Shown piece by piece: positions 10,882 to 30,881 of a stretch of 64,000 nucleotides of DNA. Position 1 is the stretch's first letter. Every line of letters begins with the position of its first letter. The stretch is from positions 7,234 to 71,233 of IMG/VR virus record IMGVR_UViG_3300042965_000128; one strand, written 5' to 3'. The notes beneath the pieces were generated by a model that saw nothing but the letters and a program-made list of their open reading frames with translations, was not told where the DNA came from and made no database searches. This DNA comes from a virus. The translations under genes were made by a program, and so were the position numbers.

Positions 10882-11121
10882 ATGGCTGATAGAGGTCTTG
10901 AGGGCAAGATCAGAAGAGTTGATATTAAGTTGGATGGTGCGATATCTTATGCGAGGCAATCGCTTGGTGAACTTGATGATGCGATAGATGTTCTAAAGGT
11001 TCTTGTTTCTGCTGGTTATGTGAGTGGTGGTCGGGTGCGGAGGCTTGAGAGGCTGGCGCATGATTTGCATTCGGTCATTGAGAAGCTGGAGGAGTTTTCC
11101 GATGAGTTTATGGAATTTTGA
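10882..11121 (+). CDS. helical-hairpin paralog family member
   Basis: amphipathic heptads with central turn LVSAGYVSGG; start moved from 10873 to ATG 10882. Confidence 0.65.
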   Translation: MADRGLEGKIRRVDIKLDGAISYARQSLGELDDAIDVLKVLVSAGYVSGGRVRRLERLAHDLHSVIEKLEEFSDEFMEF

Positions 11122-11141
11122 ATTTTGGTTGGGTAGTAGAG

Positions 11142-11528
11142 ATGATGAGGGTTAATAGGGTTATAAGCCGGTTGTATGGTATTTTGCGTGGCGATTTGAA
11201 GCGTTATGCCTCTACGGTTTATATTCTTAATACGCCTGTTTTGACGGATTGGGGTGAGTATGTTTTTCGTCCGATAAGCGTTGATGAGGCGCTTGAGTTG
11301 TTGGAGGGTGGTTTTGTTTCGGCGGTTGGGCATGAGGGGACAGCACAGATTCTGTCACAACTGCTCGGTGTGAAGGTTCCTGTGAGTCGGATTCAGATAA
11401 GGATGAATGTTGGTGATAAGGCGTTGGTTTTTAGGGTTTTAACGAGGTTACCTGAGGGGAAGGTTTTGACAGAGGAGGAGTTAAGGAAGCTTCCGTGGAC
11501 GATTGGGTTGTTGGAGCGTGTGCGGTGA
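11142..11528 (+). CDS. acrIII-1: AcrIII-1-type viral ring nuclease (DUF1874 / STIV B116-like) with an N-terminal extension
   Basis: YILN start of core, FVSAVGHEGTAQILSQLLG with the catalytic His, GDKALVF, RLPEGKVL. Confidence 0.85.
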   Translation: MMRVNRVISRLYGILRGDLKRYASTVYILNTPVLTDWGEYVFRPISVDEALELLEGGFVSAVGHEGTAQILSQLLGVKVPVSRIQIRMNVGDKALVFRVLTRLPEGKVLTEEELRKLPWTIGLLERVR

Positions 11529-11761
11529 TGTTTGGTTGGAATATTAGGGAGAGGTTTATTGGTTTTTTGAAGTCGTTGGTAGAGGTGGTCAGGCGTGATG
11601 ACGTAGTTAGTTTGGCTTTTGGTTGTCTCTTTGTTTTGCTGGGATTCGTGGGAGTTTTGTTGAATGCAGAAGGGTTGATTTCGAGATTGCTATCTCTGGT
11701 TTATTGTATTGTGATGATTGTGGGAGTGTGGCTCGTTTTTAACAGTTTAGGGAAGGGATGA
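11528..11761 (+). CDS. small two-TM membrane protein
   Basis: TGATG overlap; two hydrophobic stretches. Confidence 0.55.
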   Translation: MFGWNIRERFIGFLKSLVEVVRRDDVVSLAFGCLFVLLGFVGVLLNAEGLISRLLSLVYCIVMIVGVWLVFNSLGKG

Positions 11762-12159
11762 GGAGATATTTTTTTGTGCTTTATAAGAATCCGTCAAGCA
11801 TTGATGATAGAGAGAATTATGTGGTTGTTTCGCCTGGAGAGTTATTGCTGGCGGTTGGATGGGTGCGGGCGATTATTTCCACAATTGCGATTTTGAGAAT
11901 GGACTTTGAAGCAATCACTTTAAAGCCCTTCATTATTGCTGAGAAGGTTCTTTCAACGAGAATGTTTGTTCATGAATTCACACATTTGAGGCAACAAGAA
12001 GATGATGGACTGATAAAATTCTGTATCAAGTATCTGTGGGAGTGGTTTAAAAATTTCTTTTTCAAAAAAGAGACAAGGTTTAATTTTTTTGAGTCTTATT
12101 GGAATATATCTTATGAGGTTGAGGCGAGGGAGGCAGCAGAGAATTTTCAGAGGGCATGA
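11758..12159 (+). CDS. small zincin-like HEXXH protein (DUF4157-like)
   Basis: FVHEFTHLRQQ...YWNISYEVEAR. Confidence 0.65.
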   Translation: MRRYFFVLYKNPSSIDDRENYVVVSPGELLLAVGWVRAIISTIAILRMDFEAITLKPFIIAEKVLSTRMFVHEFTHLRQQEDDGLIKFCIKYLWEWFKNFFFKKETRFNFFESYWNISYEVEAREAAENFQRA

Positions 12160-12737
12160 GAGTGGGATATTTGGTTGAGGGTGCGATAGGTTTTTCAAGT
12201 TCGCCTTCGTGGATTAGCAGGGTGATAAGGTGGTTTACGAGGTCGAGGTGGTCGCATTGTTTTGTTGTTTGGAAGGTGACTGGACCTGACGATGATGATA
12301 TTCTTTTGGTAGAGGCGGGTGAATTTCAGGTTCAGATAGTTACATTAGGAAAGTATATGAGAGGAAATTACGAATTTGAGATTTTAGATGTATCTTCGTT
12401 GATAAATTCAGAAAAGAAAAAAGAAGCGGATAAAAAGTTAGTGTCAAAAGTTGAAACGCTTTATGGCTGGCTACAATTGATAGGATTTGGAATTGTTATT
12501 TTGTTAAGAAAGTGGTTTGGCTGGAAGAGTAAGAAAAATATCTGGGGGCGGGGCAAAATCTGTTCAGAAGTTGTTGCGGAGTATTTGATTGATTGCGGAA
12601 TTGATTACAAAAGTTTATGCGGTGACAAGGATATAAATTTAATCTCACCAGAGGATATATATAAGTTCTTGGAATCAAGGAATTGTGATGTTATAATGTT
12701 TAAAAGATTTAACAAAAAAAGTAATAGGAGGTGCTGA
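12156..12737 (+). CDS. circularly permuted NlpC/P60 (YiiX/YebB-like) hydrolase
   Basis: IRWFTRSRWSHC (His first), YGW, KICSEVVA (Cys last). Confidence 0.75.
   Translation: MRVGYLVEGAIGFSSSPSWISRVIRWFTRSRWSHCFVVWKVTGPDDDDILLVEAGEFQVQIVTLGKYMRGNYEFEILDVSSLINSEKKKEADKKLVSKVETLYGWLQLIGFGIVILLRKWFGWKSKKNIWGRGKICSEVVAEYLIDCGIDYKSLCGDKDINLISPEDIYKFLESRNCDVIMFKRFNKKSNRRC
12669..12697 (+). promoter_or_regulatory. sigma70-like promoter inside the 3' end of the upstream gene
   Basis: TTGGAA, 17-nt spacer, TG-T-TATAAT, upstream of 12739. Confidence 0.55.
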
Positions 12738-12738
12738 T

Positions 12739-12969
12739 ATGGCGAGAGAAGAAAGGATGAAAGAGTTGGTGGTAGGGAGGTTTAGGAGTGCCCTGAATAT
12801 ACTCTGGGATGCTCTTGAGTTGTTTGAAACTGCCGCGGAGGGTTTAGAGGATTTAGTGGATGAAGATCCTATAGGTTACAGGGCAAGGTATGAGAGGATA
12901 AGGGAGGATCTGAGAAGGATTTGGGACGCGGGAGAGAGGATAGAGAGGGAAATTAGGCGTTTAAGGTAG
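12739..12969 (+). CDS. helical-hairpin paralog family member (divergent)
   Basis: RBS AGGAGGTG; all-helical E/R-rich 76 aa. Confidence 0.65.
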   Translation: MAREERMKELVVGRFRSALNILWDALELFETAAEGLEDLVDEDPIGYRARYERIREDLRRIWDAGERIEREIRRLR

Positions 12970-13268
12970 TGGGTGTGGTGATGGATAGGACTCTGGCGCG
13001 GTTGCTTCATTTTTTATCTGAGAGGTCGTTTGAGCGGCTTCGTGATAGGGTATATGCATTGAAAGAGTTTTTAATGGATAAGATGCTAGGTGAGCTCGCA
13101 GGTTATGTTAAGGAGTTTAAGAGCGTTTTATCAAAAGATGAATATCAGACTTTGATTAAGTTTTTTATGGATTTTGAGGATGTGGTTAAGGAGGATCTGG
13201 AAGAACTTTTGAATGATGTTGAAGCACTTTTGAAGAGGCTGGATAAGATAACTGGTTTCAAGCGTTGA
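12969..13268 (+). CDS. helical-hairpin paralog family member
   Basis: central SVLSKDEYQTL turn. Confidence 0.65.
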   Translation: MGVVMDRTLARLLHFLSERSFERLRDRVYALKEFLMDKMLGELAGYVKEFKSVLSKDEYQTLIKFFMDFEDVVKEDLEELLNDVEALLKRLDKITGFKR

Positions 13269-13315
13269 TCGGTTGTTTGAATTAATTCGGTTTGTTGTGG
13301 TGATTTAAATTAAAA

Positions 13316-13516
13316 TTGATTGAGACCGAGGGGATTAAGTATATTGGTTCCAAGGAAAGATTACTGCCTTATATTTTGGATTTTGTTCGGCGGTTGCGTC
13401 CTCGTGTGGTGCTTGATGCGGTGGGCGAATGGGTGGGTAAGGGGAATGCTGGTGATAAGGAATTTTTGTTTTTTGTTGAGAATGTAGTCGCTGATGGAAG
13501 GGATCAGACGAATTGA
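13316..13516 (+). pseudogene. remnant of a D12-class adenine methyltransferase
   Basis: IKYIGSKERLLPYI...VVLDA (motif X and start of motif I) then stops after 66 aa; no DPPY. Confidence 0.6.
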
Positions 13517-14472
13517 TACTGATGAGGAGCTGCGTTCGAGGTTGCTATCCTTGTGTCGTTTGAGTTACGGTGATATTTGGGTGGATGCGGTTAGGGGTCA
13601 CAGGGTGGGTGTTCTGGATGCTACTAAATTGGAGGATGTGCAACGGATTATGGGTGGGGAAAAAGGCGCGGTTGGTATTGAATGACCCGCCCTATAATTT
13701 GGTGGTTGGTAATGCTAAAAGTGCGTATCTTTTCAAGGTTGATATTGGGGCTTATTTAGAATTTTCACGGGGGTGGATCCAAAATGCTGTTTATGTCATG
13801 GATGCTGATTCGCATTTGTATATATGGGTGGGTGCAGATTACAGGGATGGTTTTCAGCCCCTTCCTGACTTAATGATTTTATTGCGTGAGTTTAAGGAGT
13901 TGAAGCCGCGGAATTTTATCACGATGCGTAATCAGCGTGGTTATGGGACGCGGCGGAATTGGATGTGGGTAAGACAGGAACTTCTTTATTATGTTAAGGG
14001 TAATCCGGAGTTCTATGTGGATGCGGAATATACTGAAATTCCGAAGATAGTCAGGGGTTATTATAAGAAAGTAGGAGGTGAGGTTAAGGAGAATTTAGTG
14101 CGGAGCAGGTCTAAATTTATAAGAGCGGGGAATGTCTGGGTTGATATACAGCAGGTTTTTTACAGGATGGAGGAGAATGTTCCGGGGTGTTATGCGCAGA
14201 AGCCGTTGAAGGCGATTGAACGTATAATTCGTTCTGCCACGAAGGAAGGTGAGTTGGTGGTAGATTTTTTTGCACACTCTGGTACGACGTTGATCGCTGG
14301 AGAAAGACTGAAGAGGGTGGTATATACTTTTGATATTGATCCTGTATTTGCTGAAATAACGATAAGGAGATTGGAGCGTTATAGAAGCACAGGGAAAACG
14401 GGCTGGCAGTGGGAGAGTCCCTTTCCTGAGTTAGGTAGTGCTTTTTTAGTTGGATTGGGTGTTTGGGCTTGA
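13494..14472 (+). pseudogene. N6/N4 DNA methyltransferase (beta class) split by a +1 frameshift
   Basis: ORF 13494 ...VLDATKLEDVQRIMGGEK joins ...ARLVLNDPPYN of ORF 13570 if one A is removed from A5 at 13660-13664; QKP and VDFFAHSGTT downstream. Confidence 0.75.
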
Positions 14473-14513: not shown

Positions 14514-15185
14514 TTGCAGATGCGGGCGATGAAGGTGGCATTGGATATAGGTCATTTGTATAAGAGGAGCAATCCGGGTGATAAGGGAGCATTGTATGAA
14601 GGAATTTATGAGGCTGATTTTGTATTTAATTATGTGAGGAAAGCGTATCAATTACTGGAGGGTGAAAACGGTATTGAAGTTTATATGTCTGATCCCTTGA
14701 AGGGTATTCTGGTTGGTGATTATTGGGAAAGAAGGAGGTGGGTGAATGAGCGGTTTGGTGAGACTGATTTGTATCTTCAATGTCACTTGAATAGTGGGAA
14801 TGGTAATTATGCTTTAGTGATGTGTGTATTGGGTTTTGATTATGATGAGAAGGTTAATAGGGTTAGGCCAGTTGTTCCAGATGAGCTGGTTGAGATTGAA
14901 AGAATGTATGGTCAGGTTTTAGCGATGAATACGCAGAAGTTTTTAGGGCTTCAGGTTAGGGATTTTGATGAAGCGAAGGATTTTGTCTGGAGTTTGAAGA
15001 GGGGAGAAAGAGGGTATGATATAGTTAAGCAGTTCAAGTGTCCCGCATTTGTCTATGAGCCCTGTTTTATAGATAACACATATCATTTTGAGAATTTGAA
15101 AAGTGGGGTGTGGGTAGAGGCTATAGCGAAGGCTATTTGGAGGTCATGTATTGAAATCAGGGATAGGATTAGTTATAATGGGTGA
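14514..15185 (+). CDS. N-acetylmuramoyl-L-alanine amidase (Amidase_3) endolysin
   Basis: VALDIGH, IYEAD, CHLNS, YEPCFID zinc-amidase motifs. Confidence 0.8.
   Translation: MQMRAMKVALDIGHLYKRSNPGDKGALYEGIYEADFVFNYVRKAYQLLEGENGIEVYMSDPLKGILVGDYWERRRWVNERFGETDLYLQCHLNSGNGNYALVMCVLGFDYDEKVNRVRPVVPDELVEIERMYGQVLAMNTQKFLGLQVRDFDEAKDFVWSLKRGERGYDIVKQFKCPAFVYEPCFIDNTYHFENLKSGVWVEAIAKAIWRSCIEIRDRISYNG
15151..15179 (+). promoter_or_regulatory. sigma70-like promoter inside the amidase 3' end
   Basis: TTGAAA, 17-nt spacer, TATAAT. Confidence 0.65.
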
Positions 15186-15187: not shown

Positions 15188-15213
15188 GATTAAGGAATTT
15201 AAATAAGGAGGTG
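15188..15213 (+). repeat. duplicated 26-bp leader/RBS, copy 1
   Basis: GATTAAGGAATTTAAATAAGGAGGTG; 24/26 identical to 15540-15565. Confidence 0.75.
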
Positions 15214-15218: not shown

Positions 15219-15527
15219 ATGCGTAGATATGGGATGACTTTGGAGGAGTTTGTGGAGGAGATGATAGCGATGGGGAGGGAGTTGGTTAATATGGGTTATA
15301 AGAGGGTGGATGAGTTGAGGCAGTTTTATGGTAAGGTAGATGAATTGAGCAGGTTGCTTGATGAGGCGCATATTGGTGGTGAGTTGTCGACGCGTGAATA
15401 TAGAAATTTAAATGAAAGGCTCACGATGATAATGGATATGGTGAAGGATGCGTCCAGTATAGGTAAGCGTGCTGTGGATGCGTTGAATAAATTTTTAATG
15501 GATGTAGGCGGTTTGTTAAAAAAGTAG
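15219..15527 (+). CDS. helical-hairpin paralog family member
   Basis: starts MRRYG; turn EAHIGGELSTREYRNL. Confidence 0.8.
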   Translation: MRRYGMTLEEFVEEMIAMGRELVNMGYKRVDELRQFYGKVDELSRLLDEAHIGGELSTREYRNLNERLTMIMDMVKDASSIGKRAVDALNKFLMDVGGLLKK

Positions 15528-15539: not shown

Positions 15540-15565
15540 GATTAAAGAATTTTAATAAGGAGGTG
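15540..15565 (+). repeat. duplicated 26-bp leader/RBS, copy 2
   Basis: GATTAAAGAATTTTAATAAGGAGGTG. Confidence 0.75.
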
Positions 15566-15569
15566 TAGC

Positions 15570-15872
15570 ATGAACGGTGATTTTTTAAGGGACATCGTAA
15601 GGAAGTTCAGGGCAGTAGAAGGGCGGTTTGAAAGACATCTACTCGGCATAGTTGACCAGTTTCTGGAGGAGTTAGAGAGAATGCGTGGTGCAGTGGCTGA
15701 TGCAGTGCGGAGGGGTGAAATCTCGCGGGATATACGGGAAGATATTTTAGCGACGGTTGATGCGATTGTTGCTAAGGTAGAAGGTACGGATTCAATTGTC
15801 GGTAAGGTTGGGGAAATAAAGAGGTTGATAGAGGAGTTGAAAGATTATATTGAAGAACGTTATGGCGATTAG
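15570..15872 (+). CDS. helical-hairpin paralog family member
   Basis: turn DAVRRGEISRDIREDI. Confidence 0.8.
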   Translation: MNGDFLRDIVRKFRAVEGRFERHLLGIVDQFLEELERMRGAVADAVRRGEISRDIREDILATVDAIVAKVEGTDSIVGKVGEIKRLIEELKDYIEERYGD

Positions 15873-15955
15873 GGCGGTAACATCGTTTTGTGGTCGTCTG
15901 GTCTCTGTGGAGGCAGATGCGGTTTGGTAGTTGGAATTCGATTTAGTATTTTATT

Positions 15956-16222
15956 TTGGAGTGTATGATGGGGCGTTTTGATAAGTTGCGTTTTTTGCTT
16001 CAGCAGGCGGGTTTGCTGGATGTGAATAAGTGTTTGCTGGATGTTGATTTATCAAAGTCGTTGAAGTTGCTCGAGTTGAGTGGTAGTTTGCACTCTTTGT
16101 CTGATGATGATTTGCGGGCTTTATATGATTTGGTTGAAGAGGAGATTAGGGATAGGAGGGCGGGTTTGTATCGGCTTTTGGGTTTGTTGAAGGATGAAAT
16201 GGCGCGTAGGGGTCTGACATGA
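15956..16222 (+). CDS. small hypothetical helical protein
   Basis: ATGA overlap with the next gene. Confidence 0.55.
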   Translation: MECMMGRFDKLRFLLQQAGLLDVNKCLLDVDLSKSLKLLELSGSLHSLSDDDLRALYDLVEEEIRDRRAGLYRLLGLLKDEMARRGLT

Positions 16223-17772
16223 TTGAACAGCTTTTGAAGATATTTGAGTTTGGTGACCGCTGGTATGTGGATTCGATGAATGGTGATGATGCTAATGATG
16301 GTAGGAGTTGGGCTACTGCGAAGCGGACTATACAGAGTGCGATTGATGTGGCGCAGAGTGGTGATACGATTTTGATAAGGGGTAGTTTTGATGAGGATAT
16401 AACGATTTCGTATAAGCAGTTGCGTATCGTGGGTGTGGGTAGTTCGAGCATTAACGGGACATCGGATTTGTCAAGACCGATCATAACGGTTGATGGTGGT
16501 ACTGTGGTTTGTGTTGGTATTAGTTTGGGTGTGGTGGTTAATGCTGATTGTACTTGTATTTTGCTGGATGATATTAATCCGGTTGAGAGGGGTGATAAGA
16601 TAGTAGAGGTTTTTGGTGCGGTTGATTCTTTGGGGGTTGGCAATTGGATTGGTGATCCCTGGAATGCTGAGGAGTTAACCTCAACGAAGTTAATTGAGAA
16701 GTATTCTGCGTCTGTGGCGGTTAAGCCTTCGCCGGGAGATACGACGCTGGTAGTAAATGGTAATATAGCGGTTGAGCCGTGGTTATCGGTGAGGAAGTTT
16801 ATGCAGCAGGGTCATGCTTTTTTCCCGATTTATATTACGCGGAGCTATGAGGGAATAACTTATGATGAGGGTAATGATGTTTCAATTATTTCGGGTATTG
16901 ATCCACCTTTTACGGCTGATACTTTGCCGGGAGATTGGCCGAAGAATAATATTTATTTGTGTGCGATAAGGGTGCATCCTGATAGTTTTGTGGGTTTTCA
17001 TGCGAGGGGTGAGCAGATAGTTCCTGACAGGCGGAATTTGAAGCATTTGATATCTTCGCAGGGTTTAACGCTTTTGAGTGCGATTTTTGTGAGTTGTATG
17101 ATTCGTGCGTATATAAGTCCTTATATGCAGATTCCTGTTCCTGTGTCGAATTTGATTTTTGATAGTTGTTGGTTTTGGGGTTTGCAGGATATAGGGCGTT
17201 ATCTTTTTAATTTTCTTTGTATACCATTTGGTTCATTTGCGGTGCGTGATAGTGTTTTTTTGGTAACGGAGGGTTCGGGTATTGCGAAGATAACGGGCTT
17301 GTCGGAGGATTTTTTGCGTATGATTGGTGCGCCTTTTACGAAGGATTTTAGGGATTTGCTGGGTGTGGGAGGGTTTTTCCATAATATAATTGCTAACATA
17401 TCGTTTGGTAACTTTGATGCGCCTGTGATAAGGGATTGGGTGAGTTCGAAGGTTCCCATATCGAAGCTTGTGATTGGGCGGGAGGTGTTGTCGGTTGATA
17501 TGAATACTGGTGAGATTGTTATAGGACCGCTTGAGCTTGCATTGCCGTTTGCTGAGAATTTGTGGGTAAATGCGTATTATGCGGGCTTGAATTACAGGAA
17601 TGTTGAGGTTGTGCGTGATGTGGATAGGTGTCCGGCTGGTGATGTTTTGCGTTCGTATAAGGATAAGGCGGCGCTTGGTAATGTTGCTGCGATTGAGGAG
17701 TCGTTGGTGTATGATGTGAGTGCTGTGTTGCAGGGTCTGGTTGCAAAAAAGAGGCTGGAGATTATAAAATGA
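16219..17772 (+). CDS. putative right-handed beta-helix (pectin-lyase-like) virion or surface protein
   Basis: N-terminal WYVD...GDDANDGRSWATAKRTIQSAIDVAQSGDTILIRG cap motif. Confidence 0.65.
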   Translation: MIEQLLKIFEFGDRWYVDSMNGDDANDGRSWATAKRTIQSAIDVAQSGDTILIRGSFDEDITISYKQLRIVGVGSSSINGTSDLSRPIITVDGGTVVCVGISLGVVVNADCTCILLDDINPVERGDKIVEVFGAVDSLGVGNWIGDPWNAEELTSTKLIEKYSASVAVKPSPGDTTLVVNGNIAVEPWLSVRKFMQQGHAFFPIYITRSYEGITYDEGNDVSIISGIDPPFTADTLPGDWPKNNIYLCAIRVHPDSFVGFHARGEQIVPDRRNLKHLISSQGLTLLSAIFVSCMIRAYISPYMQIPVPVSNLIFDSCWFWGLQDIGRYLFNFLCIPFGSFAVRDSVFLVTEGSGIAKITGLSEDFLRMIGAPFTKDFRDLLGVGGFFHNIIANISFGNFDAPVIRDWVSSKVPISKLVIGREVLSVDMNTGEIVIGPLELALPFAENLWVNAYYAGLNYRNVEVVRDVDRCPAGDVLRSYKDKAALGNVAAIEESLVYDVSAVLQGLVAKKRLEIIK

Positions 17773-17800: not shown

Positions 17801-18118
17801 ATGTTAAGGCGTGGGCAGAAGAATTTGGAGGAGTTGCATGATTTGTTGTTTGATTCTATATTGGAGATGATTGATGTGTCGAAGCAGATTCAAGCTGATG
17901 CGGAGGAGGTTCGGACTTTGTTTGAGGAGTGTGATGCGATTGCGGAGGATGCGTATAGGAGTGGTGCTTTGACCCGTTCGGAGAGGGACGAGTTATCGTT
18001 TTTCCTTCCGTTTTTGCATGCTGGTGATGTGGCGCGTGAGGGTGGGCAGTTGAACAGGAGTGTTAAGGATGTTTTGCGTAAATTGAATGTTTATATGGAG
18101 CGGCTTAAAAGGAGGTGA
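17801..18118 (+). CDS. helical-hairpin paralog family member
   Basis: RBS AAGGAGGTG; starts MLRRG; turn DAYRSGALTRSERDEL; candidate promoter TTGCAA-18-TAAAAT at 17741-17770. Confidence 0.8.
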   Translation: MLRRGQKNLEELHDLLFDSILEMIDVSKQIQADAEEVRTLFEECDAIAEDAYRSGALTRSERDELSFFLPFLHAGDVAREGGQLNRSVKDVLRKLNVYMERLKRR

Positions 18119-18122: not shown

Positions 18123-18446
18123 ATGTTGAAAAAGGTTGGTGCTGATGTAGGTCGGGACCTGCGTGAAAAGTTGGATAAACGGGTTTTGCGTGCCGAGGAA
18201 CTTGTTAAGCGGATAGTTGCGAATGTTAAGCGGTTTGCTCGTATTGTGGATGAGTATGTTGCTTTGGTGGAGGATGCGGGTGCTCGTGGGCTTATAAATC
18301 CGGATGATGAGCATTATTTGGGTTCGGCGTTGCTGGTGTATGCGTTGAGGCATTATAGGGAGCTGGAGTGGTTGAGCAGGGAATTGCGTGGTGATGTGGA
18401 GCGGGCGAAGGCTAAGTTAGCGGGATTCTTTGCAGGTAGAGGGTAG
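18123..18446 (+). CDS. helical-hairpin paralog family member
   Basis: start moved to ATG 18123 after AGGAGGTG; MLKKVG; turn DAGARGLINPDDEHYL. Confidence 0.75.
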   Translation: MLKKVGADVGRDLREKLDKRVLRAEELVKRIVANVKRFARIVDEYVALVEDAGARGLINPDDEHYLGSALLVYALRHYRELEWLSRELRGDVERAKAKLAGFFAGRG

Positions 18447-18538
18447 AATTTGCCAGGAATCGGGTTGTGGAGTTATTTGCGGGTTGGATTGAGGAAGTGA
18501 TGGAAGAAATTTGAGTTAATGGGAATCTGGAGGTCAGG

Positions 18539-19123
18539 TTGCGTGGGGTTTGGCTCGGGAGTTTAATTGGTTTATGTTTGTGGTTGTTGTTTTTTGTTTT
18601 GTTTCTGCGGTTTTGTGATGTGTGTTGTAGGGGGCATGATAAGTTAGTTTCTGTGCGGGTGAGTCTGGATGATATTTTGGTGTCGGATGTAGATGATTTT
18701 TTGGATGAGCGTTTGGTTTTGTTGCGGAGTGAGCGTGCGCGTGAGGGTGTGGTTGTATGTGGGAAGTGGCTTGCTGGATATGTTGAGGACCCGATAGGTT
18801 TTGTTCTGAGTATTGCCTGTGTCGAGAGTGATTTGGGGCGTTTGCGTGATGGTCGTGATGGTGAGATAGGGTTGATGCAGTTGAGTCCGTATTGGTTGGA
18901 TCGTTATGGTTTCTTACGGGAGGAGCTTGCGGATGATATGGTTAATGTGTGTTTTGCGGTGGATTTGTTGAGGGAATATTTTGAGCGGTATGGTGATGTT
19001 TTTATGGTGCTGCGGGCATATAATAGGGGTGAGGTCAGGATGTGGAGTGGTCAAAATGAATTGTATCTGAGGAGGTTTTTCGAATGTGCCGAAAGGGTTG
19101 GCTGGCAGAGGAGGGTTGAATAG
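18539..19123 (+). CDS. SLT-type lytic transglycosylase with an N-terminal membrane anchor
   Basis: IACVES (catalytic Glu), GEIGLMQL, AYNRG; hydrophobic N-terminus. Confidence 0.85.
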   Translation: MRGVWLGSLIGLCLWLLFFVLFLRFCDVCCRGHDKLVSVRVSLDDILVSDVDDFLDERLVLLRSERAREGVVVCGKWLAGYVEDPIGFVLSIACVESDLGRLRDGRDGEIGLMQLSPYWLDRYGFLREELADDMVNVCFAVDLLREYFERYGDVFMVLRAYNRGEVRMWSGQNELYLRRFFECAERVGWQRRVE

Positions 19124-19144
19124 TGTTCGGAATTGATTTATTAT
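19116..19144 (+). promoter_or_regulatory. sigma70-like promoter
   Basis: TTGAAT, 17-nt spacer, TATTAT, upstream of 19167. Confidence 0.5.
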
Positions 19145-19166
19145 TAGGTTAAATAAGGAGGTGCTG

Positions 19167-19451
19167 ATGTCTTTGAGAAGGAAAGGTGGGTTGACCATGC
19201 GTGAGAGCGTTAAGTTACTTGAGGAGGCGGCGTGTGCTATTGAGGATGTGGTTGATTTGATAGAGAAGGCGTTGAGGGGAACGCCGCTGTATGATGATGC
19301 GAAGCGGTATTTGATTTCACGTCTGGAGAAGTTGGTGCGCTTGGCTGGTGCTGAGTCCTGGTTGAGCAGAGGATATTATACGATAGAGAGGATGATAAGG
19401 GTTTTTTGGAGGAGTTTGCGGAATAGTTGGTCGTTTATTATAGGAATTTGA
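19167..19451 (+). CDS. small helical protein, possible divergent hairpin-family member
   Basis: RBS AAGGAGGTG; starts MSLRRKG. Confidence 0.65.
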   Translation: MSLRRKGGLTMRESVKLLEEAACAIEDVVDLIEKALRGTPLYDDAKRYLISRLEKLVRLAGAESWLSRGYYTIERMIRVFWRSLRNSWSFIIGI

Positions 19452-19739
19452 GTGGTGGCTGGAATGCGGGTGTTGAAGAACTTTTTTTGGCGGTTGATTG
19501 GTGCGCTGGATGATTATTTGTCATTGAAGGTTCAGTTTTGCGTCGCCTGGATGGTTCTGGTGGTTTTATCTGGCTTCAAAACCGTAGTTGTGGTGATTGC
19601 AGCGATTTTTGGTATTCTTGCCCTTTATATCAGGGAAATTCAAAAACCTGATTCAAATTTAACGAGGATAATAATTGCGTGGTTGACAAAGCAGAATTTT
19701 CTTTCTGGCACAGATGTGCCAAAGAAGAATGAGGAGTAA
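19452..19739 (+). CDS. putative holin
   Basis: two TM segments and a charged C-terminus, beside lysis genes. Confidence 0.5.
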   Translation: MVAGMRVLKNFFWRLIGALDDYLSLKVQFCVAWMVLVVLSGFKTVVVVIAAIFGILALYIREIQKPDSNLTRIIIAWLTKQNFLSGTDVPKKNEE

Positions 19740-21326: not shown

Positions 21327-21353
21327 TTTAACAATTAAAAAGGAGATGTTGAA

Positions 21354-21611: not shown

Positions 21612-21614
21612 AAT

Positions 21615-21643
21615 TTGATGTGAGTAACAAAATATACTATAAT
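21615..21643 (+). promoter_or_regulatory. sigma70-like promoter
   Basis: TTGATG, 17-nt spacer, TATAAT; RBS AGGAGGTG at 21651-21658. Confidence 0.65.
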
Positions 21644-21662
21644 ATGAAACAGGAGGTGTAAA

Positions 21663-21773
21663 ATGAAAGGTGTAGTAGATTATTACGATGACAGAGAAGG
21701 TAAGGTTAAGGCAATGAAGATAGAGCTGAAGTTTGGGAGTTGGTGGGATGAGGACACAGGTTGGTTAAGATGA
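21663..21773 (+). CDS. 36-aa small protein (not in the ORF track)
   Basis: MKGVVDYYDDREGKVKAMKIELKFGSWWDEDTGWLR with its own promoter and RBS. Confidence 0.6.
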   Translation: MKGVVDYYDDREGKVKAMKIELKFGSWWDEDTGWLR

Positions 21774-21779
21774 GGCAGT

Positions 21780-22354: not shown

Positions 22355-22954
22355 ATGAGGCGGTTGTATCGTGGCGAGATAGGGGATGCTATTAAGCGTT
22401 TAGGTCAGTTGGTTGAATATGTGGCGGATGATGTGGATTTGGTTCGTGATTTTTCGCATTGTTTAGAGGAGGTTATTAGGTGTTTGGAGGGTAAGGTTCT
22501 TCCTCGTATCAAGTTTGGGGATAGTGTGATAGAGGAGATGGGTGGTAATCCTCGTCGGTTTGCGCGGCATTTTATGGAATTTTGGTGGAGTGCGGTTGTG
22601 GTTCTTTTTTGTTTGATGGGTCTGAGGCGGTCGATATCTTCGGAGCGTGCGTTGGGTGAGTTCAGGCGGTTGTGGCGTCGGTGGAAGTTATTTATGGATG
22701 ATGTTGGTGAGCGTTTCAGGTGGAGTGTGGGGTTGTATTGGGGGAAAGAGCGGATTAGGGCGAGGACGCTGGGTGAGTTTATAGACAGGTATCCCTTTAA
22801 GCATTTGTGGAAGGATGAGTGGGGGAGGGGTTCGGGTTGTGTGATATGTGCTTATGAGTTTGTTCCGAAGGAGAGGGTTTTTCCCTTGCTTGATTTTACG
22901 ACATATATGGAGATGCTGAATTCTTTGCGTAATGGAGGGGGATTTGAATCTTAG
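22355..22954 (+). CDS. hypothetical protein, paralog of the C-terminal domain of the 22932 ORF
   Basis: C..EV..CL, GGNP..FA..F..FW, YP..HLW and CxxC shared. Confidence 0.7.
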   Translation: MRRLYRGEIGDAIKRLGQLVEYVADDVDLVRDFSHCLEEVIRCLEGKVLPRIKFGDSVIEEMGGNPRRFARHFMEFWWSAVVVLFCLMGLRRSISSERALGEFRRLWRRWKLFMDDVGERFRWSVGLYWGKERIRARTLGEFIDRYPFKHLWKDEWGRGSGCVICAYEFVPKERVFPLLDFTTYMEMLNSLRNGGGFES

Positions 22955-24191
22955 GCGTTTAGTGTTTGATGTTTATGTTCTTGAGTATATAAGGCGATTT
23001 GATAAAAAGGCGGACTATTTATTTAGGGAGAAGTTATGGGAGCTTGTGGATGTGGTTTTGCGTATGGTTGTGGATGCGGTTTTAGAGGAGGCGCGGTATT
23101 TGTTGGATGCGCCTGGTGTGCGTGGTAAGGCGGCGCTAAAATCTGATTTGAACAGGCTTTTTGAGTTAGAGGAGGTTGATAGGTTAGATGAATTTTTTGC
23201 GCTGGCTAAGGATGTTGCGAGGCGTGCTCGTGAGGCGGGAATGCTTTATTTTTCGCATGGCTGGGAGGGGGTGGTTGACAAGGCGTTAGAGCTTTTGCGG
23301 ACGAGTGATTCGTCTACGGCTATGATTTTGGTGGATCAGATTAAGGATATAGCGCATCTGACGGGTATGGTTTTGCCTGAATTGTCGAGGGTAGTGAAGG
23401 AGATGGAGGGTAAGCGGATAGGTGAGATTGTGAGGGATTGCTCGGATGAGGTCAAACGCATTTATGATAAATTGCGATTGGTTTTTCCGGAGGTTCGTGT
23501 AGCGCAGTTGAGGATTGAGAAACCTTCTGATTTTGGTAGGGAGGAGGAGCGGGTGATACCTGGTGTTAAGCCTATGAGGTTGGTGGATATTAAGAAGTGT
23601 ATAATGGAGGTTACGAGTTGTTTAGATAGTTTGCTGCCGGCTTCGAGATTTGAATTAAGCAGGAGTGAGGATGAGGGTGGTAATCCTACGGAGTTTGCGG
23701 GTATATTTACGCATTTTTGGTATTGTTGTAATGCGGTTTTGACTTTGTTTGAGGAAATAAGTTTCAAGCCTGGGATGTTGAGTGCGGTTGATGCAGGTGC
23801 GTTTCGTGATGCGGTTGTGCGTTACTGGGAACATTTTTTGGAGGAGCGAATAAGGAATTTTGATTCGAAGATTAGGGTTTTGTGGGCGCGGTGGCAGGTA
23901 GATGGTAGGAGGATTACGGATTTTGCGAGTTTTTTGAGGAATTATCCGTATAGTCATTTGTGGGATTGGGTTAAGGCGGCTGCTGAGTCGCGGTGTTGTG
24001 ATTGTGTGAAGGAGATGTTGCGTGTGCCTGTGAGGCGTGATATGGATTTGGATCGTTATAGGGACAGGTTAAGGAGGGTTTTTGCGGTTTTAACGGTGCT
24101 TAAGAAGGGTCCGCGTGTGGTAGGTGAGGTTTTGCAGCGGTTGGCGTTTGTTGAGTTCGCTTTAGGTTCAGGTTATGTTGAGGCGGACTAA
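22932..24191 (+). CDS. two-domain hypothetical protein
   Basis: helical N-domain, linker PEVRVAQ, Cys-rich C-domain paralogous to the 22355 ORF. Confidence 0.7.
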   Translation: MEGDLNLRRLVFDVYVLEYIRRFDKKADYLFREKLWELVDVVLRMVVDAVLEEARYLLDAPGVRGKAALKSDLNRLFELEEVDRLDEFFALAKDVARRAREAGMLYFSHGWEGVVDKALELLRTSDSSTAMILVDQIKDIAHLTGMVLPELSRVVKEMEGKRIGEIVRDCSDEVKRIYDKLRLVFPEVRVAQLRIEKPSDFGREEERVIPGVKPMRLVDIKKCIMEVTSCLDSLLPASRFELSRSEDEGGNPTEFAGIFTHFWYCCNAVLTLFEEISFKPGMLSAVDAGAFRDAVVRYWEHFLEERIRNFDSKIRVLWARWQVDGRRITDFASFLRNYPYSHLWDWVKAAAESRCCDCVKEMLRVPVRRDMDLDRYRDRLRRVFAVLTVLKKGPRVVGEVLQRLAFVEFALGSGYVEAD

Positions 24192-28148: not shown

Positions 28149-28152
28149 GGCG

Positions 28153-28398: not shown

Positions 28399-28404
28399 TG
28401 TTAG

Positions 28405-29244
28405 ATGGAGCGGTATAGTTTGGGAAGTATGGTTTATATTTTAGTGACGCCTCTGGATGAGCAGGGAAATTATGTGAGTGGTGTTGGTGTTTTGATGGAT
28501 ATTTTGCGTCCGGATGGTGAGGTTGTGCGGAATATACCGTTGGTGGAATCAGGGTTGAGTGGTGTTTATTATGCGGTGTATGGTGATACGGATATTTTAG
28601 GGGATTATTTGTATGTGGTGTATGCGGTGGATTTTGAGCCTGCGTGTGGTTTATTCAGGGTAGTTTCAGGGGAGGTTGTATCGGGATACAGGGTTCATAT
28701 TCGTGCGGTTGATGATGCGGGAAATGGTGTAAGTGGTGTGCTTGTTGGTATTTATAGTGGTGCTGGTGGTGTGGATCTGGTTTTGATGCGTGTGACTGGT
28801 GTGGATGGTTCGGTGGATGTCCAGCTGCCGCAAGGTGAGTATGTTTTAAGGGCCTGGCATGATGGTATGTTTTTTGAGGATGTGGTGGTGCGGGTCAATA
28901 GTGATATGACTGTGTTGATGTCTGGTATATATGTTGATGTGGGTATGCCGCAGGATGCGCGGTTGATTCGTATATATGGTTTTTTAGCGGATCTCGGATT
29001 GAGTCTGGATAGGGTGCATAAGGCGGAGGTTTTATTTACGCTTGCGGATGTGCCGCAGTTTGTTGATAATACCTTGTTGTTGCGGTTTCCGGTTCGTGCG
29101 GTTATAGACAGGCGGACGGGTTTTTTTTATGCGGATGTTGTGCGTGGTATTCGTGTTATAGTTGCGTGTCCTGATGCGCAGTTTTATCGGTTGATAAGGG
29201 TTCCGGATACTGGTTTCGCTGTTAGGTTGCGGGATTTGTTGTGA
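28405..29244 (+). CDS. Ig/transthyretin-like beta-sandwich virion protein
   Basis: D..GN.VSGV repeated twice; TGVDG...LPQGEY.L. Confidence 0.55.
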   Translation: MERYSLGSMVYILVTPLDEQGNYVSGVGVLMDILRPDGEVVRNIPLVESGLSGVYYAVYGDTDILGDYLYVVYAVDFEPACGLFRVVSGEVVSGYRVHIRAVDDAGNGVSGVLVGIYSGAGGVDLVLMRVTGVDGSVDVQLPQGEYVLRAWHDGMFFEDVVVRVNSDMTVLMSGIYVDVGMPQDARLIRIYGFLADLGLSLDRVHKAEVLFTLADVPQFVDNTLLLRFPVRAVIDRRTGFFYADVVRGIRVIVACPDAQFYRLIRVPDTGFAVRLRDLL

Positions 29245-29606
29245 TGAAGGCGTTTGATGAGTTTATAAGGGATATTTTGCGTGGGGGTCTGGTTGAGGTG
29301 GAAGGTGCTGGTGATGATGGTGATGGTGGTGATGTTATGCGTTCGGTGGTGGATGGTGTGCGTGTATTTGTTGAGTGGTTGCGTTCGTTGAGTGATGATG
29401 ATTTGATGAGGGTGGTTGATGCGATAAGTTCTTTGATTGAGATGGGTTTGCTTGATACGTTGTTGCGTGATACGGTGGAGTTCAGGGTATTTATGCTGGT
29501 GGCGAAGTTGGTGGTGCTTGAGGTTTGTGCACGTGTGGGGATAGTGCGGTATGGTTTTGAATCTGGTGAGTTGAGGGTGGATATGCTCGTTGAGTCAGAT
29601 GCTTGA
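29241..29606 (+). CDS. hypothetical protein
   Basis: GTGA overlap, 121 aa. Confidence 0.6.
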   Translation: MMKAFDEFIRDILRGGLVEVEGAGDDGDGGDVMRSVVDGVRVFVEWLRSLSDDDLMRVVDAISSLIEMGLLDTLLRDTVEFRVFMLVAKLVVLEVCARVGIVRYGFESGELRVDMLVESDA

Positions 29607-29631
29607 TTAGATTGATTTTTTGTGTTAGTAT
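29603..29631 (+). promoter_or_regulatory. sigma70-like promoter
   Basis: TTGATT, 17-nt spacer, TG-T-TAGTAT, ahead of the hairpin-protein cluster. Confidence 0.5.
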
Positions 29632-29657
29632 GTGGTTAGCAGGAATTGGAGGTGTGA

Positions 29658-29957
29658 GTGATGGATGAGATAAGGAGCAAGAAGGAGGCGGCGAGTAGGC
29701 TTTCTAAGGAGATTGCGAGTATTTCGAAGAACATCTGGATTGCCCTTGCGAATTTGAGTTTTGTTGTGAACGATATTGAGGATAGGATAAGGCGTAATGA
29801 GTTTTTTTTGGGGTCTAAGGCGAATGAAGAGATATTGCGGCATGTGCGCAGGATGCATAGTTTTTATGATCGGCAACTTCGTCATGGGTATATTGGGGAT
29901 TTGTTATGGTATGAGCTGGTTAAGGTTTTGGAAAAGGAATTGGGTGTGAGGCTTTGA
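29658..29957 (+). CDS. small helical protein, possible hairpin-family member
   Basis: RBS GGAGGTG; all-helical 99 aa. Confidence 0.65.
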   Translation: MMDEIRSKKEAASRLSKEIASISKNIWIALANLSFVVNDIEDRIRRNEFFLGSKANEEILRHVRRMHSFYDRQLRHGYIGDLLWYELVKVLEKELGVRL

Positions 29958-30034
29958 TGGTTGTGGATTTTTGGTTGATGTGGTTGAATGGATTGGTTGG
30001 TGCGGATGGTTGATATGTTTGGTGATGGATAGAG

Positions 30035-30361
30035 ATGGGTGTGTATACATATAAGTTTAAGAAGTTTATAGCAGAGTTGCTTGAGGGTCCGGTGAAAAGG
30101 CATTTTACGGAGGTTTATGCGTTGCTGGATGATATTGAGGAATTGTTGAATATTGCTTATGAGGACGAGGGGATTTTGGGTCCGGGTTATGAGCAGGTGA
30201 GGCGGGTGTTTGATGAGATGAAGGGGCGGATTTTTGAGTATGAGGAGATGTTTCAGGAGTTGATGGATCTGGCTGAGTCTTTGGAGGAGGAGGCGGAGAG
30301 GAAGGAGCGTGAGTGGTTGAAGAGGAAGGAGGAGATGAGGAAGTTGAAGGAGGGTAAATAA
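30035..30361 (+). CDS. helical-hairpin paralog family member
   Basis: turn IAYEDEGILGPGYEQV. Confidence 0.7.
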   Translation: MGVYTYKFKKFIAELLEGPVKRHFTEVYALLDDIEELLNIAYEDEGILGPGYEQVRRVFDEMKGRIFEYEEMFQELMDLAESLEEEAERKEREWLKRKEEMRKLKEGK

Positions 30362-30376
30362 TAGGGGAGGCGCGCG

Positions 30377-30634
30377 ATGACGTGGAGAGATTTTGTGAGT
30401 AAGGTTGTGCAGATTATAGATAAGGAGCTTGATTTATTGAAGCGTTTGAATAAGTGGAATACGGATATTGAGTTTGATGTGAGGGATGCGCTTAAGCAGG
30501 GTAGTGTGAGTAGGCGTGTGCATGATCGGATAGTGCTCGGGTTATGTGGTCCGAAGATTCAGGATGTTTGGGATATGATAAGGATTTTGGAGGATTTGCG
30601 TGATTATATATTGAGGCTTCCCCCGAGGAGGTGA
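30377..30634 (+). CDS. helical-hairpin paralog family member
   Basis: turn DALKQGSVSRRVHDRI. Confidence 0.75.
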   Translation: MTWRDFVSKVVQIIDKELDLLKRLNKWNTDIEFDVRDALKQGSVSRRVHDRIVLGLCGPKIQDVWDMIRILEDLRDYILRLPPRR

Positions 30635-30638
30635 AGAG

Positions 30639-30881
30639 ATGAAGAGAGAGGATTTGGTTAAGCGTGTGGAGGAGAAGGTTGTTATAGAGGAGGAGGTGGT
30701 GGAAGAGCTGGAGAGTCTGGAAGATATGCTTGAGAAGGTGATTAATGATGCGTATAATTCGGGTCTGCTGACAGAGGGTGAGTATGAGGAAATAATGGAG
30801 ATGATTGATGAAAAGAGGAGAGTTTTGTATGATATCAAGCGGAGAGTGGAAGGTTTAATAGATGTGGTGGATGAGTTGTAG
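30639..30881 (+). CDS. helical-hairpin paralog family member (acidic)
   Basis: turn DAYNSGLLTEGEYEEI. Confidence 0.8.
   Translation: MKREDLVKRVEEKVVIEEEVVEELESLEDMLEKVINDAYNSGLLTEGEYEEIMEMIDEKRRVLYDIKRRVEGLIDVVDEL

Follow-up and report, generated by a model that had tools for sequence, protein, structure and literature searches.

Do the thirteen small open reading frames (ORFs) dispersed over positions 10882-30881 of the window, that is, of the whole 64,000-nt stretch of viral DNA analysed here, form one protein family, and what might its members do for the virus? The ORFs come from a large, cytosine-poor tailed phage of the myovirus type, with 11% C in its DNA, and the record represents an estimated 29% of the phage genome. 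All 13 are present on the coding strand, with the starts given in an earlier note on this region, and encode, in position order, proteins of 79, 76, 99, 102, 100, 105, 107, 94, 85, 99, 108, 85, and 80 aa; the six motif strings quoted in that note match the ORFs letter for letter.

The earlier note had proposed a family of about 13 members, most of them sharing a central turn. Motif and profile comparisons show eight of these, all on the plus strand, as apparent paralogs of 80-108 aa that are highly diverged from one another, namely, 15219-15527 (102 aa; turn EAHIGGELSTREY), 15570-15872 (100 aa; DAVRRGEISRDIRE), 17801-18118 (105 aa, net charge -4; DAYRSGALTRSERDEL), its tandem neighbour 18123-18446 (107 aa, net charge +4; DAGARGLINPDDEHYL), 21354-21611 (85 aa; EAGEVYGVLPPWERNEI), 30035-30361, the second gene of a quartet (108 aa, net charge -9; IAYEDEGILGPGYEQV), 30377-30634 (85 aa, net charge +3; DALKQGSVSRRVHDRI), and 30639-30881 (80 aa, net charge -14; DAYNSGLLTEGEYEEI). 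The pattern [DE]A-x3-G-x-[LIV]-[STNP] was found six times in the 20,490 residues of the 92 plus-strand ORFs, against 0.5 matches expected (500 shuffles; mean 0.5, maximum 3). All six matches, in 15219, 15570, 17801, 18123, 30377, and 30639, lie at residues 37-63 of the respective proteins, and the pattern occurs nowhere else among the 92; 15219 matches both the strict and the mid form of the motif, and 15570 and 30377 match the mid form. In 21354 and 30035, the motif is present with a one-residue insertion, such that the turn is common to eight of the 13 ORFs.

Similarity beyond the motif points to the same eight. Pairwise comparison gave p < 0.01 against shuffles for 12 of the 78 pairs of the 13 ORFs (0.78 expected), 10 of which lie inside the eight, and when hhalign was applied to the 666 pairs that 37 small ORFs allow, the top 12 included 7 from within the family, where all probabilities are below 40%. 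Iterated profiles accompanied by reversed and shuffled decoys recovered only the eight, above all decoys, with 15219, 18123, and 21354 entering at E values of 8e-5, 1.3e-4, and 1.4e-4, respectively. Individual pairs include 17801 and 30639 (phmmer E 6e-5), 15219 and 21354 (hhalign 27% over 73 columns), and 30035 and 30639 (phmmer E 6.5e-5; hhalign 39.8% over 58 columns), the last with the proviso that a high score against 30639 is obtained with reversed 30035 too (67, compared with 75 for the real sequence). The 30639 protein is the hub of the similarity network. The 15570 and 30377 proteins form a sub-group (phmmer E 1.6e-3; Smith-Waterman p about 1e-5 against shuffles) that is linked to the core chiefly through the motif, 15570 reaching only E 1e-3 against the core profile, near its reversed decoy. 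Between sub-groups, the similarity is short and weak, BLASTP aligning 17801 with 30639 over 21 residues, and the shared turn, a widespread structural device, could be convergent. At the DNA level, a 30-nt segment at the motif is 77% similar between the tandem genes 17801 and 18123 (17924-17953 and 18249-18278), a remnant of tandem duplication. As an aside, 30639 and an unrelated LigD phosphoesterase domain give a pairwise E of 0.001, comparable to the values within the family, so that lone pairwise E-values mean little.

The remaining five ORFs, also on the plus strand, score no better than reversed decoys, and their membership is unsupported; they show only the generic coiled-coil similarity that the earlier note had taken to speak against a family, which is not the case for the eight. 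The borderline ORF 10882-11121 (79 aa) reaches a profile E of 0.027 (reversed decoy, 0.016), with two pairwise p values below 0.01; 12969-13268 (99 aa, or 95 aa if counted from the ATG at 12981) reaches 0.014, whereas its reversed decoy reaches 0.00097; and 19167-19451 (94 aa) reaches 0.026, close to its decoys. The profile search gave nothing above decoys for 12739-12969 (76 aa), and 29658-29957 (99 aa), the first gene of the quartet, was absent from the best 30 rows of that search and matched nothing in Pfam or PHROG.

Structural modelling is consistent with the all-helical character claimed earlier for the whole set, in the 3 of the 13 proteins that were modelled (17801, 12969, and 18123). 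AlphaFold2 predicted a hairpin for 17801 (helix 2-53, turn 54-58, helices 59-66 and 69-104; pLDDT 74.5) and also for 12969 (helix 3-46, turn 47-51, helix 52-91; pLDDT 72.6). The turn of the latter, KSVLS followed by KDEY, has no glycine, and the modelled protein is analogous to the family in shape. Each family protein is modelled as a long α-helical hairpin, the turn of which would consist of a glycine helix cap followed by a helix start of the [ST]-x-x-E type, a kind of turn shared with SHOCT-like and GA-like two-helix modules. When 17801 and 18123 were modelled together, as the earlier note had recommended for neighbouring pairs, an antiparallel four-helix bundle was predicted, with an ipSAE of 0.89-0.90 in three runs (best of three controls, 0.00), pLDDT of 90 and 91 (90 for 18123 as the partner), and contact agreement of 98%. 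Of 80 solved complexes, 58 reach the ipSAE mark used, as do 2 of 110 mismatched pairs; these counts apply only roughly here because the complex run used custom alignments. The alignments were shallow (3 and 4 rows). The hairpins would pair through heptad-spaced hydrophobic faces, and the two predicted partners carry the opposite net charges given above. Neighbouring copies probably pair into four-helix bundles, hetero- and homodimers being inseparable by complex prediction because close cousins of the true partner also pass.

The translation signals of the family are unusually strong. The strong ribosome-binding sites reported previously are borne out, with runs matching AAGGAGGTGA of 9, 9, 10, 10, 6, 5, 5, and 9 nt in the eight genes; five of them (15219, 9; 15570, 9; 17801, 10; 18123, 10; 30639, 9) have runs of 9-10 nt, compared with a mean of 4.9 nt in 84 other ORFs, 5 of which reach at least 9 nt. 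Judged from these sites, the family proteins are probably abundant. The duplicated leader is likewise present, as TTAAATAAGGAGGTGCTG at 15199 and, with 83% identity, at 15551 within the copy upstream of 15570 (15540-15569, plus strand), and a third copy (19149-19166), 100% identical to the 18-nt one at 15199, lies upstream of 19167. Four of the five candidate promoters, all on the plus strand, were recovered, the one at 29603 falling below the threshold of 9 of 12 matches. The segment 15151-15218 combines a promoter-like site (TTGAAA-17-TATAAT at 15151-15179; 11 of 12 matches) with the leader and Shine-Dalgarno (SD) run of 15219; both hexamers are identical in the related strain L003, a conservation that is not independent evidence because the site falls within the 3'-terminal part of the amidase gene. 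The site preceding 12739 (12669-12697; TTGGAA-17-TATAAT with an extended TG; 10 of 12) has TTGACA as its -35 in L003, and weaker sites (9 of 12 each) lie upstream of 17801 (17741-17770, with the -10 identical in L003) and, together with the leader, upstream of 19167 (19116-19166). Individual sites of this kind are weak evidence because the shuffled region also holds many of them (46 observed vs 31.7 +/- 5.0).

The family genes evolve faster than their neighbours. Relative to L003, dN/dS is 0.25-0.63 for family members (15219, 0.36; 15570, 0.63; 17801, 0.32; 18123, 0.25) and 0.06-0.28 for larger neighbours, and amino acid identity is 82-88% for the family and 85-96% for 11 larger neighbours; among the outliers, dN/dS is 0.19 for 12969 and 1.04 for 10882, the latter resting on 16 changes only. 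Gene content varies as well, and the family genes sit where related strains diverge from one another. The 21354 gene is absent from L003, which has ORFs of 183 and 127 aa in its place, and after 15570 L003 carries extra small ORFs, among them a frameshifted ORF pair with a similar turn; 19167 corresponds to a 68-aa ORF, and 12739, which contains a strain breakpoint, aligns over 33 residues inside a 48-aa ORF. A 34-kb contig from another study loses collinearity at 12843-12940, 15897-15966, 18439-18540, 19405-19463, and 20196-21779, and all five breaks fall within or next to a small ORF. Family genes would thus come and go between strains in the form of short cassettes. On independent contigs, orthologues with about 80-95% identity were found for 15219 (P0004, P0007, P0012, and P0015), 30377 (P0010, P0014, P0018, and P0019), and 30639 (P0017 and P0032), and a search for family matches in L001, L002, and Rctr197k found none. 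Among 1.84 billion representatives, the profile had 21 matches, of which 9 are the phage's own proteins or their orthologues and 12 are long repeat proteins; the matches outside the relatives are repeat proteins only, with SHOCT-like or GA-like turns scoring about 8 bits per repeat. Searches of Pfam, PHROG, and PDB matched no family, and no characterised homologue was found. By these comparisons, the family is confined to a small group of large hot-spring phages, namely, this phage and those closely related to it, and it is a real orphan family whose fold is a common one.

Could the resemblance instead be fortuitous? Unrelated orphan helical ORFs might have converged on a favoured turn, a glycine C-cap followed by an S/T-x-x-E N-cap, which is also seen in designed hairpins and in unrelated repeats of the SHOCT-like and GA-like kinds; the weak similarity beyond the motif, the reversed decoys close to marginal members, and the arrival of 12969 at the same hairpin through a different turn fit such convergence. 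We nevertheless consider it improbable, given that the motif is 12 times more frequent than expected, is confined within the proteome to these ORFs and stands at the same relative position, that several pairs align across 58-73 columns, that p is below 0.01 for 10 of the 28 pairs inside the family, and that the tandem pair shares DNA similarity and three cassettes a leader. Even further from the evidence is the notion that the ORFs are untranslated chance frames of a cytosine-poor strand. The 11% C does skew codon content, and dN/dS of 10882 is about 1, but the ORFs fill the spaces left in a dense gene array that runs on one strand, bear unusually strong SD sites, and remain open in relatives, with dN/dS of 0.19-0.63 in 6 of the 7 small ORFs tested; the eight are shown to be real coding genes.

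Genomic context suggests two further roles. In phage T4, the genes of the small core proteins gp67 and gp68 adjoin those of the protease and the scaffold, and the internal proteins of T4 are hypervariable. Here, the quartet 29658-30881, with its three family members, lies directly upstream of the genes for the head maturation protease (31067; phrog_18299, E 2e-30), a putative scaffold (32072; named from its position and acidic repeats, with no family match), and the major capsid protein (34396). The family might therefore comprise internal head or prohead-core proteins packed with the scaffold, possibly cut by the protease, that aid assembly or are ejected with the DNA, and the strong SD sites suit abundant proteins of this sort. 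The placement by the head genes fits both a structural and an accessory role. We regard the head role as rather unlikely: five of the eight members are encoded 9-15 kb away amid lysis-type and DNA-modification genes, the alignment of members reveals no common N-terminal targeting or cleavage motif, and the more distant relative L001 retains the flanking genes for protease, scaffold, and capsid but lacks the quartet, which is therefore dispensable for that head. A role in the lysis module, as regulators or adaptors close to the membrane with the SHOCT-like turn at its inner face, is doubtful to a greater degree still. Lysis-type genes do adjoin the family: an Amidase_3 gene (14514-15185) precedes 15219 and 15570, an SLT transglycosylase gene follows 17801 and 18123, and 21354 is upstream of a spanin-like gene (21826; phrog_739, E 8e-6). 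Moreover, SHOCT-like domains are predicted from comparative genomics, without experiment, to anchor proteins at the inner leaflet, as stated in an excerpt of that study (PMC11237479). However, the sole experiment described in the excerpted SHOCT paper failed to support even oligomerisation (PMC3581485), Pfam models do not establish SHOCT membership, the proteins, long hairpins of a soluble type, have negative GRAVY values and lack a hydrophobic segment, and the quartet is away from the lysis genes.

We favour, with a probability of about 0.5, the reading in which the eight are diverged, lineage-specific paralogs that form pairing hairpins with an accessory binding role. The proteins are small, probably highly translated, devoid of a catalytic motif, fast-evolving, and gained or lost between strains, and therefore would most likely be abundant binding or adaptor proteins, without enzymatic activity, that belong to the accessory ("moron-like") genome; their targets would probably be host factors, such as those of defence or takeover. 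Essential structural parts they are unlikely to be.

Among known systems, the WXG100 proteins, such as EsxA-EsxB (PF06013), are helical hairpins of ~100 aa encoded by side-by-side genes and paired into four-helix bundles. The earlier comparison with them holds as one of architecture, the family consisting of hairpins of about 100 aa with adjacent genes and a modelled four-helix bundle (17801/18123), whereas its turn lacks W-x-G and its setting is a phage rather than type VII secretion; a Pfam search of the family found no match to PF06013, and no secretion ATPase was present among 20 neighbouring genes scanned. Rop/Rom of ColE1 plasmids is similarly a helical hairpin that forms an antiparallel dimer and four-helix bundle, but the helices of the family are nearly twice as long, with nothing pointing to RNA binding; Foldseek gave no significant fold match (best PDB E 0.77; a lengthened ROP variant, 9cfs_A, among the weak rows at E 3.0), nor was there a sequence match. 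The closest likeness of the turn is to the SHOCT and SHOCT-like modules (PF09851, PF20612, PF22746, and PF08044) and the GA-like repeats (PF22775). SHOCT-like modules likewise have two amphipathic helices connected through a short turn, in which a strongly conserved glycine precedes [LIV]-[ST]-x-x-E; the SHOCT motif is described in the excerpted PMC3581485. The four long proteins among the six outside repeat-protein matches scanned with Pfam carry SHOCT-like or GA-like domains, and the Pfam models SHOCT_2 and SHOCT each matched 2 of 23 members below threshold (best E 0.031 and 0.22, respectively). SHOCT, however, spans about 30 aa and is usually C-terminal in multidomain proteins, whereas each protein of the phage family is a hairpin of 80-108 aa on its own, with the turn at its centre and helices that are much longer.

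All 13 of the small ORFs that an earlier note had proposed as a family of helical-hairpin proteins were found at their claimed starts (ORFs are named here by start position in the window, and all lie on the + strand), with lengths of 76 to 108 aa, and the six turn sequences quoted for them were recovered exactly. The proposed family of about 13 members stood only in part: five lines of evidence concur that eight ORFs cohere (15219, 15570, 17801, 18123, 21354, 30035, 30377, and 30639) and that five are outliers (10882, 12739, 12969, 19167, and 29658). When the 92 ORFs of at least 40 aa that tile the + strand of the window were compared all against all with phmmer, 30639 was linked to 17801 (E 6e-5) and 30035 (6.5e-5), and 30377 to 15570 (1.6e-3), with weaker links between 30639 and 21354 (2e-3) and between 18123 and 17801 (0.01). 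Iterated profiles, run against a database containing reversed and shuffled decoys, expanded to 15219, 17801, 18123, 21354, 30035, and 30639, with 15570 and 30377 marginal (E 1e-3, best decoy 9e-4 to 2e-3). A profile built from a 23-row alignment that included orthologues placed no ORF beyond the eight training sequences above the decoys; 12969 reached 0.014 and its own reversed sequence 0.00097, and 10882 and 19167 behaved similarly. Smith-Waterman scores compared with 400 shuffles gave p below 0.01 in 12 of 78 pairs (0.78 expected), 10 of which connect two of the eight, the other 2 involving 10882. When 37 small ORFs were aligned pairwise with hhalign (666 pairs), 7 of the best 12 pairs fell within the eight, each with a probability below 40%. 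Finally, the motif [DE]A...G.[LIV][STNP] has six matches in the 20,490-residue proteome, always central and solely in ORFs of the eight, compared with 0.5 matches on average and never more than 3 across 500 shuffled proteomes.

The BLASTP alignment of 17801 with 30639 extends over just 21 residues, and 30639 reaches an E value of 0.001, comparable to those of within-family pairs, with a phosphoesterase domain to which it is unrelated; the case for the family thus depends on the summed evidence and on no single pair. The LigD-PE protein 24175 was rejected as a relative of 30639, as the aligned part belongs to the phosphoesterase domain that Pfam names LigD_N (residues 75-160) and not to a helical hairpin. 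Likewise, 12969 was considered as a cryptic member and rejected, its hairpin shape matching but its profile score falling below that of its reversed decoy, and it is kept as "analogous."

The small ORFs have the properties of genuine genes. Eight of them, comprising the five outliers and three family members, were looked up by exact sequence in a public protein collection, and all eight are called as genes there, in clusters of one to seven members with uninformative names. Full-length counterparts of 7 of the 13 ORFs are present in L003, a collinear related strain with 83-94% nucleotide identity. The dN/dS values relative to L003 were 0.36 for 15219, 0.63 for 15570, 0.32 for 17801, and 0.25 for 18123, and, among the outliers, 0.19 for 12969 and 1.04 for 10882, the latter from 16 changes only, compared with 0.06-0.28 for 11 larger neighboring genes. 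These values indicate that the small genes are coding and are under purifying selection weaker than that acting on their neighbors.

The source virus record comprises 71,233 bases, 64,000 of which make up the window, and its estimated completeness is 29%, so that the complete genome is probably much longer. The major capsid protein (34396-35619, +) is 45% identical to that of the related Virus Rctr197k and 34% identical to the head protein of Bacillus phage G; the head maturation protease (31067, +; phrog_18299, E 2e-30) and the tail sheath protein (41121, +) point to a large myovirus-type phage. When words were sampled from a 6.9-kb stretch, 24-48% of them were present in runs from other studies labeled "hot springs metagenome," and the runs listed as containing it included no RNA run. 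A tRNA scan found no tRNAs. The + strand consists of 11% C, 33.7% G, 31.5% T, and 23.8% A, with a GC skew of 0.37-0.63 in each 2-kb bin of the window and ORF tiling on the + strand alone. The poverty in C is common to the close relative L003 (1,778 of 18,277 bases), and C is again the rarest base in L001 (2,290 of 20,084), a further relative with a capsid protein 64% identical, in which G exceeds C less strongly (G:C about 1.9 vs. 3.1). At the left end of the window, 1814-3226 encodes a DUF2201 metallopeptidase plus VWA-like protein (E 5e-42 and 5e-24). The product of 11118-11528 is STIV_B116-like (PF08960, E 9e-28); this family takes its name from an archaeal virus but occurs here in a phage carrying peptidoglycan hydrolases.

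Differences between the window and L003 concentrate at the small ORFs. ORF 21354 is absent from L003, its position being occupied by other ORFs; L003 contains about 470 extra bases after 15570, in which two ORFs separated by a frameshift encode a similar turn, as well as extra DNA following 19167, and a breakpoint lies within 12739. A 34-kb contig from another study has the same breakpoints as L003, the contigs aligned to the region being informative on collinearity and breakpoints only. The two ORFs after the 15570 orthologue (L003 7848-8145; 52 and 56 aa, overlapping in different frames) face only 83 bases in the window, and, read jointly, their sequences resemble another hairpin gene with a similar turn, putatively interrupted by a frameshift. 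Elsewhere, the window has an intact N6_N4 DNA methyltransferase gene (13570-14472), whose counterpart in L003 (5496-6236) is split into three short ORFs with about 410 bases missing (window 13355-13769); L003 may have a pseudogene here or may be misassembled.

Other paralogs were also observed in the window. The proteins encoded at 15956-16222 and 29241-29606 (88 and 121 aa) are a possible small-protein pair (hhalign 40%, E 3e-4), and a homolog of 29241 is apparently retained in the distant relative L001 (4402-4776). Two sets lie upstream, at 3223-7608: 3223, 3695, and 4161 (phmmer 2e-20 to 2e-6), to which 5652 is weakly linked, and 4664, 5228, and 7189 (7e-9 to 1e-6; hhalign 88% between 5228 and 7189). 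Genes 46445 and 47122 are tandem duplicates (46445-47781, E 4e-47), and at 22355-24191 the sequence of a 199-aa protein recurs in the C-terminal part of the adjacent 419-aa protein (E 6e-17), with the DNA also shared (D5).

The translation signals of the family are strong, as the earlier note had claimed: a perfect match of 9-10 nt to AAGGAGGTGA precedes five of the eight members, and five of the other 84 ORFs, including 19167. The 97-aa ORF at 58584-58877, outside the region of the 13 ORFs, has a 10-nt Shine-Dalgarno match and is unrelated to the family (hhalign 2%). The leader described as duplicated, TTAAATAAGGAGGTGCTG, is indeed present at 15199 and 15551 (83%), with a third copy at 19149. 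Of the five candidate promoters, four correspond to sigma-70-like sites (15151, 11/12; 12669, 10/12; 17741 and 19116, 9/12 each) and the one at 29603 does not; this DNA is rich in sites of this kind (46 vs. 31.7 +/- 5.0 in shuffles), and the promoter hexamers are mostly conserved in L003 but situated in coding 3' ends.

The AlphaFold2 model of 17801, obtained with the 23-row alignment, consists of helices at residues 2-53, 59-66, and 69-104 with a turn at 54-58 (mean pLDDT 74.5, peaking at the motif). The products of the adjacent genes 17801 and 18123 are predicted to bind each other, with an ipSAE of 0.89-0.90 in three runs compared with 0.00 for the best of three controls, pLDDT of 90 and 91, and contact agreement of at least 98%; of 80 solved complexes, 58 pass the ipSAE mark, as do 2 of 110 mismatched pairs, a calibration that is only rough given the shallow custom alignments. 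The heptad-spaced contacts along both helices, with helix 1 antiparallel to helix 1 of the other chain, make the predicted complex a four-helix bundle, and the two proteins carry opposite net charges (-4 and +4). Because 17801 and 18123 are paralogs, a homodimer might form as well. The hairpin fold and the four-helix-bundle dimer are thus modeled features. The outlier 12969 is also modeled as a hairpin (helices 3-46 and 52-91, turn 47-51; pLDDT 72.6), so that the earlier label of helical hairpin may extend beyond the family.

Neither Pfam, PHROGs, nor the PDB has a record of the family. None of the 13 ORFs matched Pfam or PHROGs at E below 0.001, and the best match of the family profile to PDB sequences (E 0.011) was to a protein named "sohair," other matches including designed helical proteins, keratin, and chemoreceptors, which marks them as generic. 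Of 5.8 billion proteins searched through a word index, 19 matched, all of them the phage's own proteins or close orthologues on few contigs. The family profile, compared exhaustively with 1.84 billion representatives, matched 21, comprising 9 family members or orthologues and 12 long repeat proteins. Four of these 12 were scanned with Pfam and contain GA_3, SHOCT, SHOCT-like_DUF2089-C, or DUF1707 repeats; in the one read row by row (P0020, 22 repeats), each repeat contributes 8.3 bits at profile positions 27-65, so that its significance is a sum over repeats. Profile searches with this family call for caution: its hallmark, the glycine-capped turn, is a helix-turn-helix device of a generic sort and attracts false matches to repeat proteins. 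The profile had no match in L001, L002, or Virus Rctr197k, the analysis of L003 covering its 18-kb locus, and a search of viral contigs for related loci with the protein P0009 found nothing. The best feature score in the ESM Atlas was 0.81, under the lead threshold, and the structure matches were generic helical bundles. Foldseek searches with the 17801 model yielded at best E 0.77 in the PDB and 0.38 in BFVD; the matches were generic hairpins, namely uncharacterized small phage proteins, with an Acb2/Tad1-hairpin protein only at rank 48 (E 1.7). Literature searches on SHOCT, on jumbo and hot-spring phages, and on phage helical-hairpin paralogs listed no description of the family.

The eight small genes are real and constitute a lineage-restricted family with strong translation signals. 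We infer that their products are abundant, non-enzymatic, fast-evolving accessory binding proteins, with a host-directed role, in counter-defence or takeover, favored, and assign this statement as a whole a probability of about 0.5. Small orphan helical proteins account for a large share of the unexplained gene content of phages, and several known counter-defence proteins share such size and shape. The main rival, which we consider unlikely, is an internal head or core role, at least for the quartet 29658, 30035, 30377, and 30639, which is suggested by its position upstream of the protease gene 31067; the more distant L001 retains the nucleotidyltransferase-like, 29241-like, protease, scaffold, and capsid genes without the quartet. 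Convergence without common ancestry would agree with the short pairwise alignments and is improbable in view of the summed evidence for the eight. A lysis-linked, membrane-proximal role, highly improbable in our estimate, might be read from the spanin-like gene at 21826 (+) and from the Amidase_3 and SLT transglycosylase genes in the same region, which by Pfam also includes genes for a STIV_B116-like protein, two DNA methyltransferases, a LigD-type phosphoesterase, and a HAD hydrolase. That the ORFs are non-coding is hardly credible given their dN/dS values, among which that of 10882 alone is near unity.

Within the favored host-directed role, a specific and decidedly speculative scenario would have the eight or more paralogs serve as a combinatorial kit, in which charge-complementary hairpins, such as 17801 with 18123, or 30639 (-14) or 30035 (-9) with 30377 (+3), would mix into many four-helix bundles acting as anti-defence decoys or inhibitors, with cassettes swapped by the strains as if in an arms race. 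Every bundle would show a different surface, setting a fast-evolving stoichiometric set against host defence proteins, and some members might be packaged and delivered along with the DNA. As it stands, the family is a compact example: a large hot-spring phage carries eight or more copies of a single hairpin scaffold, which have strong translation signals, whose neighboring members are predicted to pair, and which differ in presence from strain to strain through gain and loss. Should the pairing and a host target be demonstrated, it would exemplify a phage diversifying a minimal binding scaffold; otherwise, it would be a well-bounded orphan family.

Among known systems, SHOCT is described in PMC3581485 as a two-helix unit with a strongly conserved turn Gly and a conserved Glu at the beginning of helix 2. 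These turn features are present in the family: the Gly occurs in 23 of 23 alignment rows, a Glu follows six residues later in four of the eight paralogs by our own reading of the alignments, and the turn is placed between two helices in the 17801 model. With a conserved Gly followed by [LIV]-[ST]-x-x-E between two amphipathic helices, the turn is thus of the SHOCT-like kind. Nevertheless, the gathering scores of SHOCT (PF09851) and SHOCT_2 (PF20612) were not reached, 2 of the 23 members and orthologues matching each model (best E 0.22 and 0.031, respectively), and a Pfam scan of 10 proteins at E up to 1 returned no SHOCT match. Furthermore, SHOCT domains span about 30 aa and are mostly C-terminal in multidomain proteins, whereas the members of this family stand alone, are 80-108 aa long, and have the motif at their center (residues 37-63). 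The turn is therefore treated here as a shared structural device rather than as SHOCT membership.

Like WXG100 proteins (PF06013), the family members are hairpins of about 100 aa, with a predicted pairing with the product of the adjacent gene (or, possibly, homodimerization). However, WXG100 has a central W-x-G turn, whereas the family turn is A-x3-G and lacks Trp, bearing out the earlier claim that there is no WXG motif. The PF06013 model matched none of 10 scanned proteins at E up to 1 and does not appear in the list of 25 families (out of 43) matched by member set A2 at E up to 10, the 18 others matching at most one member each. WXG100 also goes with a type VII secretion ATPase, none of which was detected by Pfam in 20 larger proteins scanned in this tailed-phage context. 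For Rop of ColE1, there was no PDB sequence match, and Foldseek placed a ROP variant at E 3.0 (best overall 0.77). T4-type internal head or prohead core proteins occur in virions and carry an N-terminal signal for targeting to, or cleavage by, the head protease; the one point of agreement here is the location of the quartet beside the protease gene, and the family alignment has no common N-terminal motif except basic residues. The fold and turn of the family are ordinary; its novelty is the presence of eight or more stand-alone paralogs within one phage lineage.
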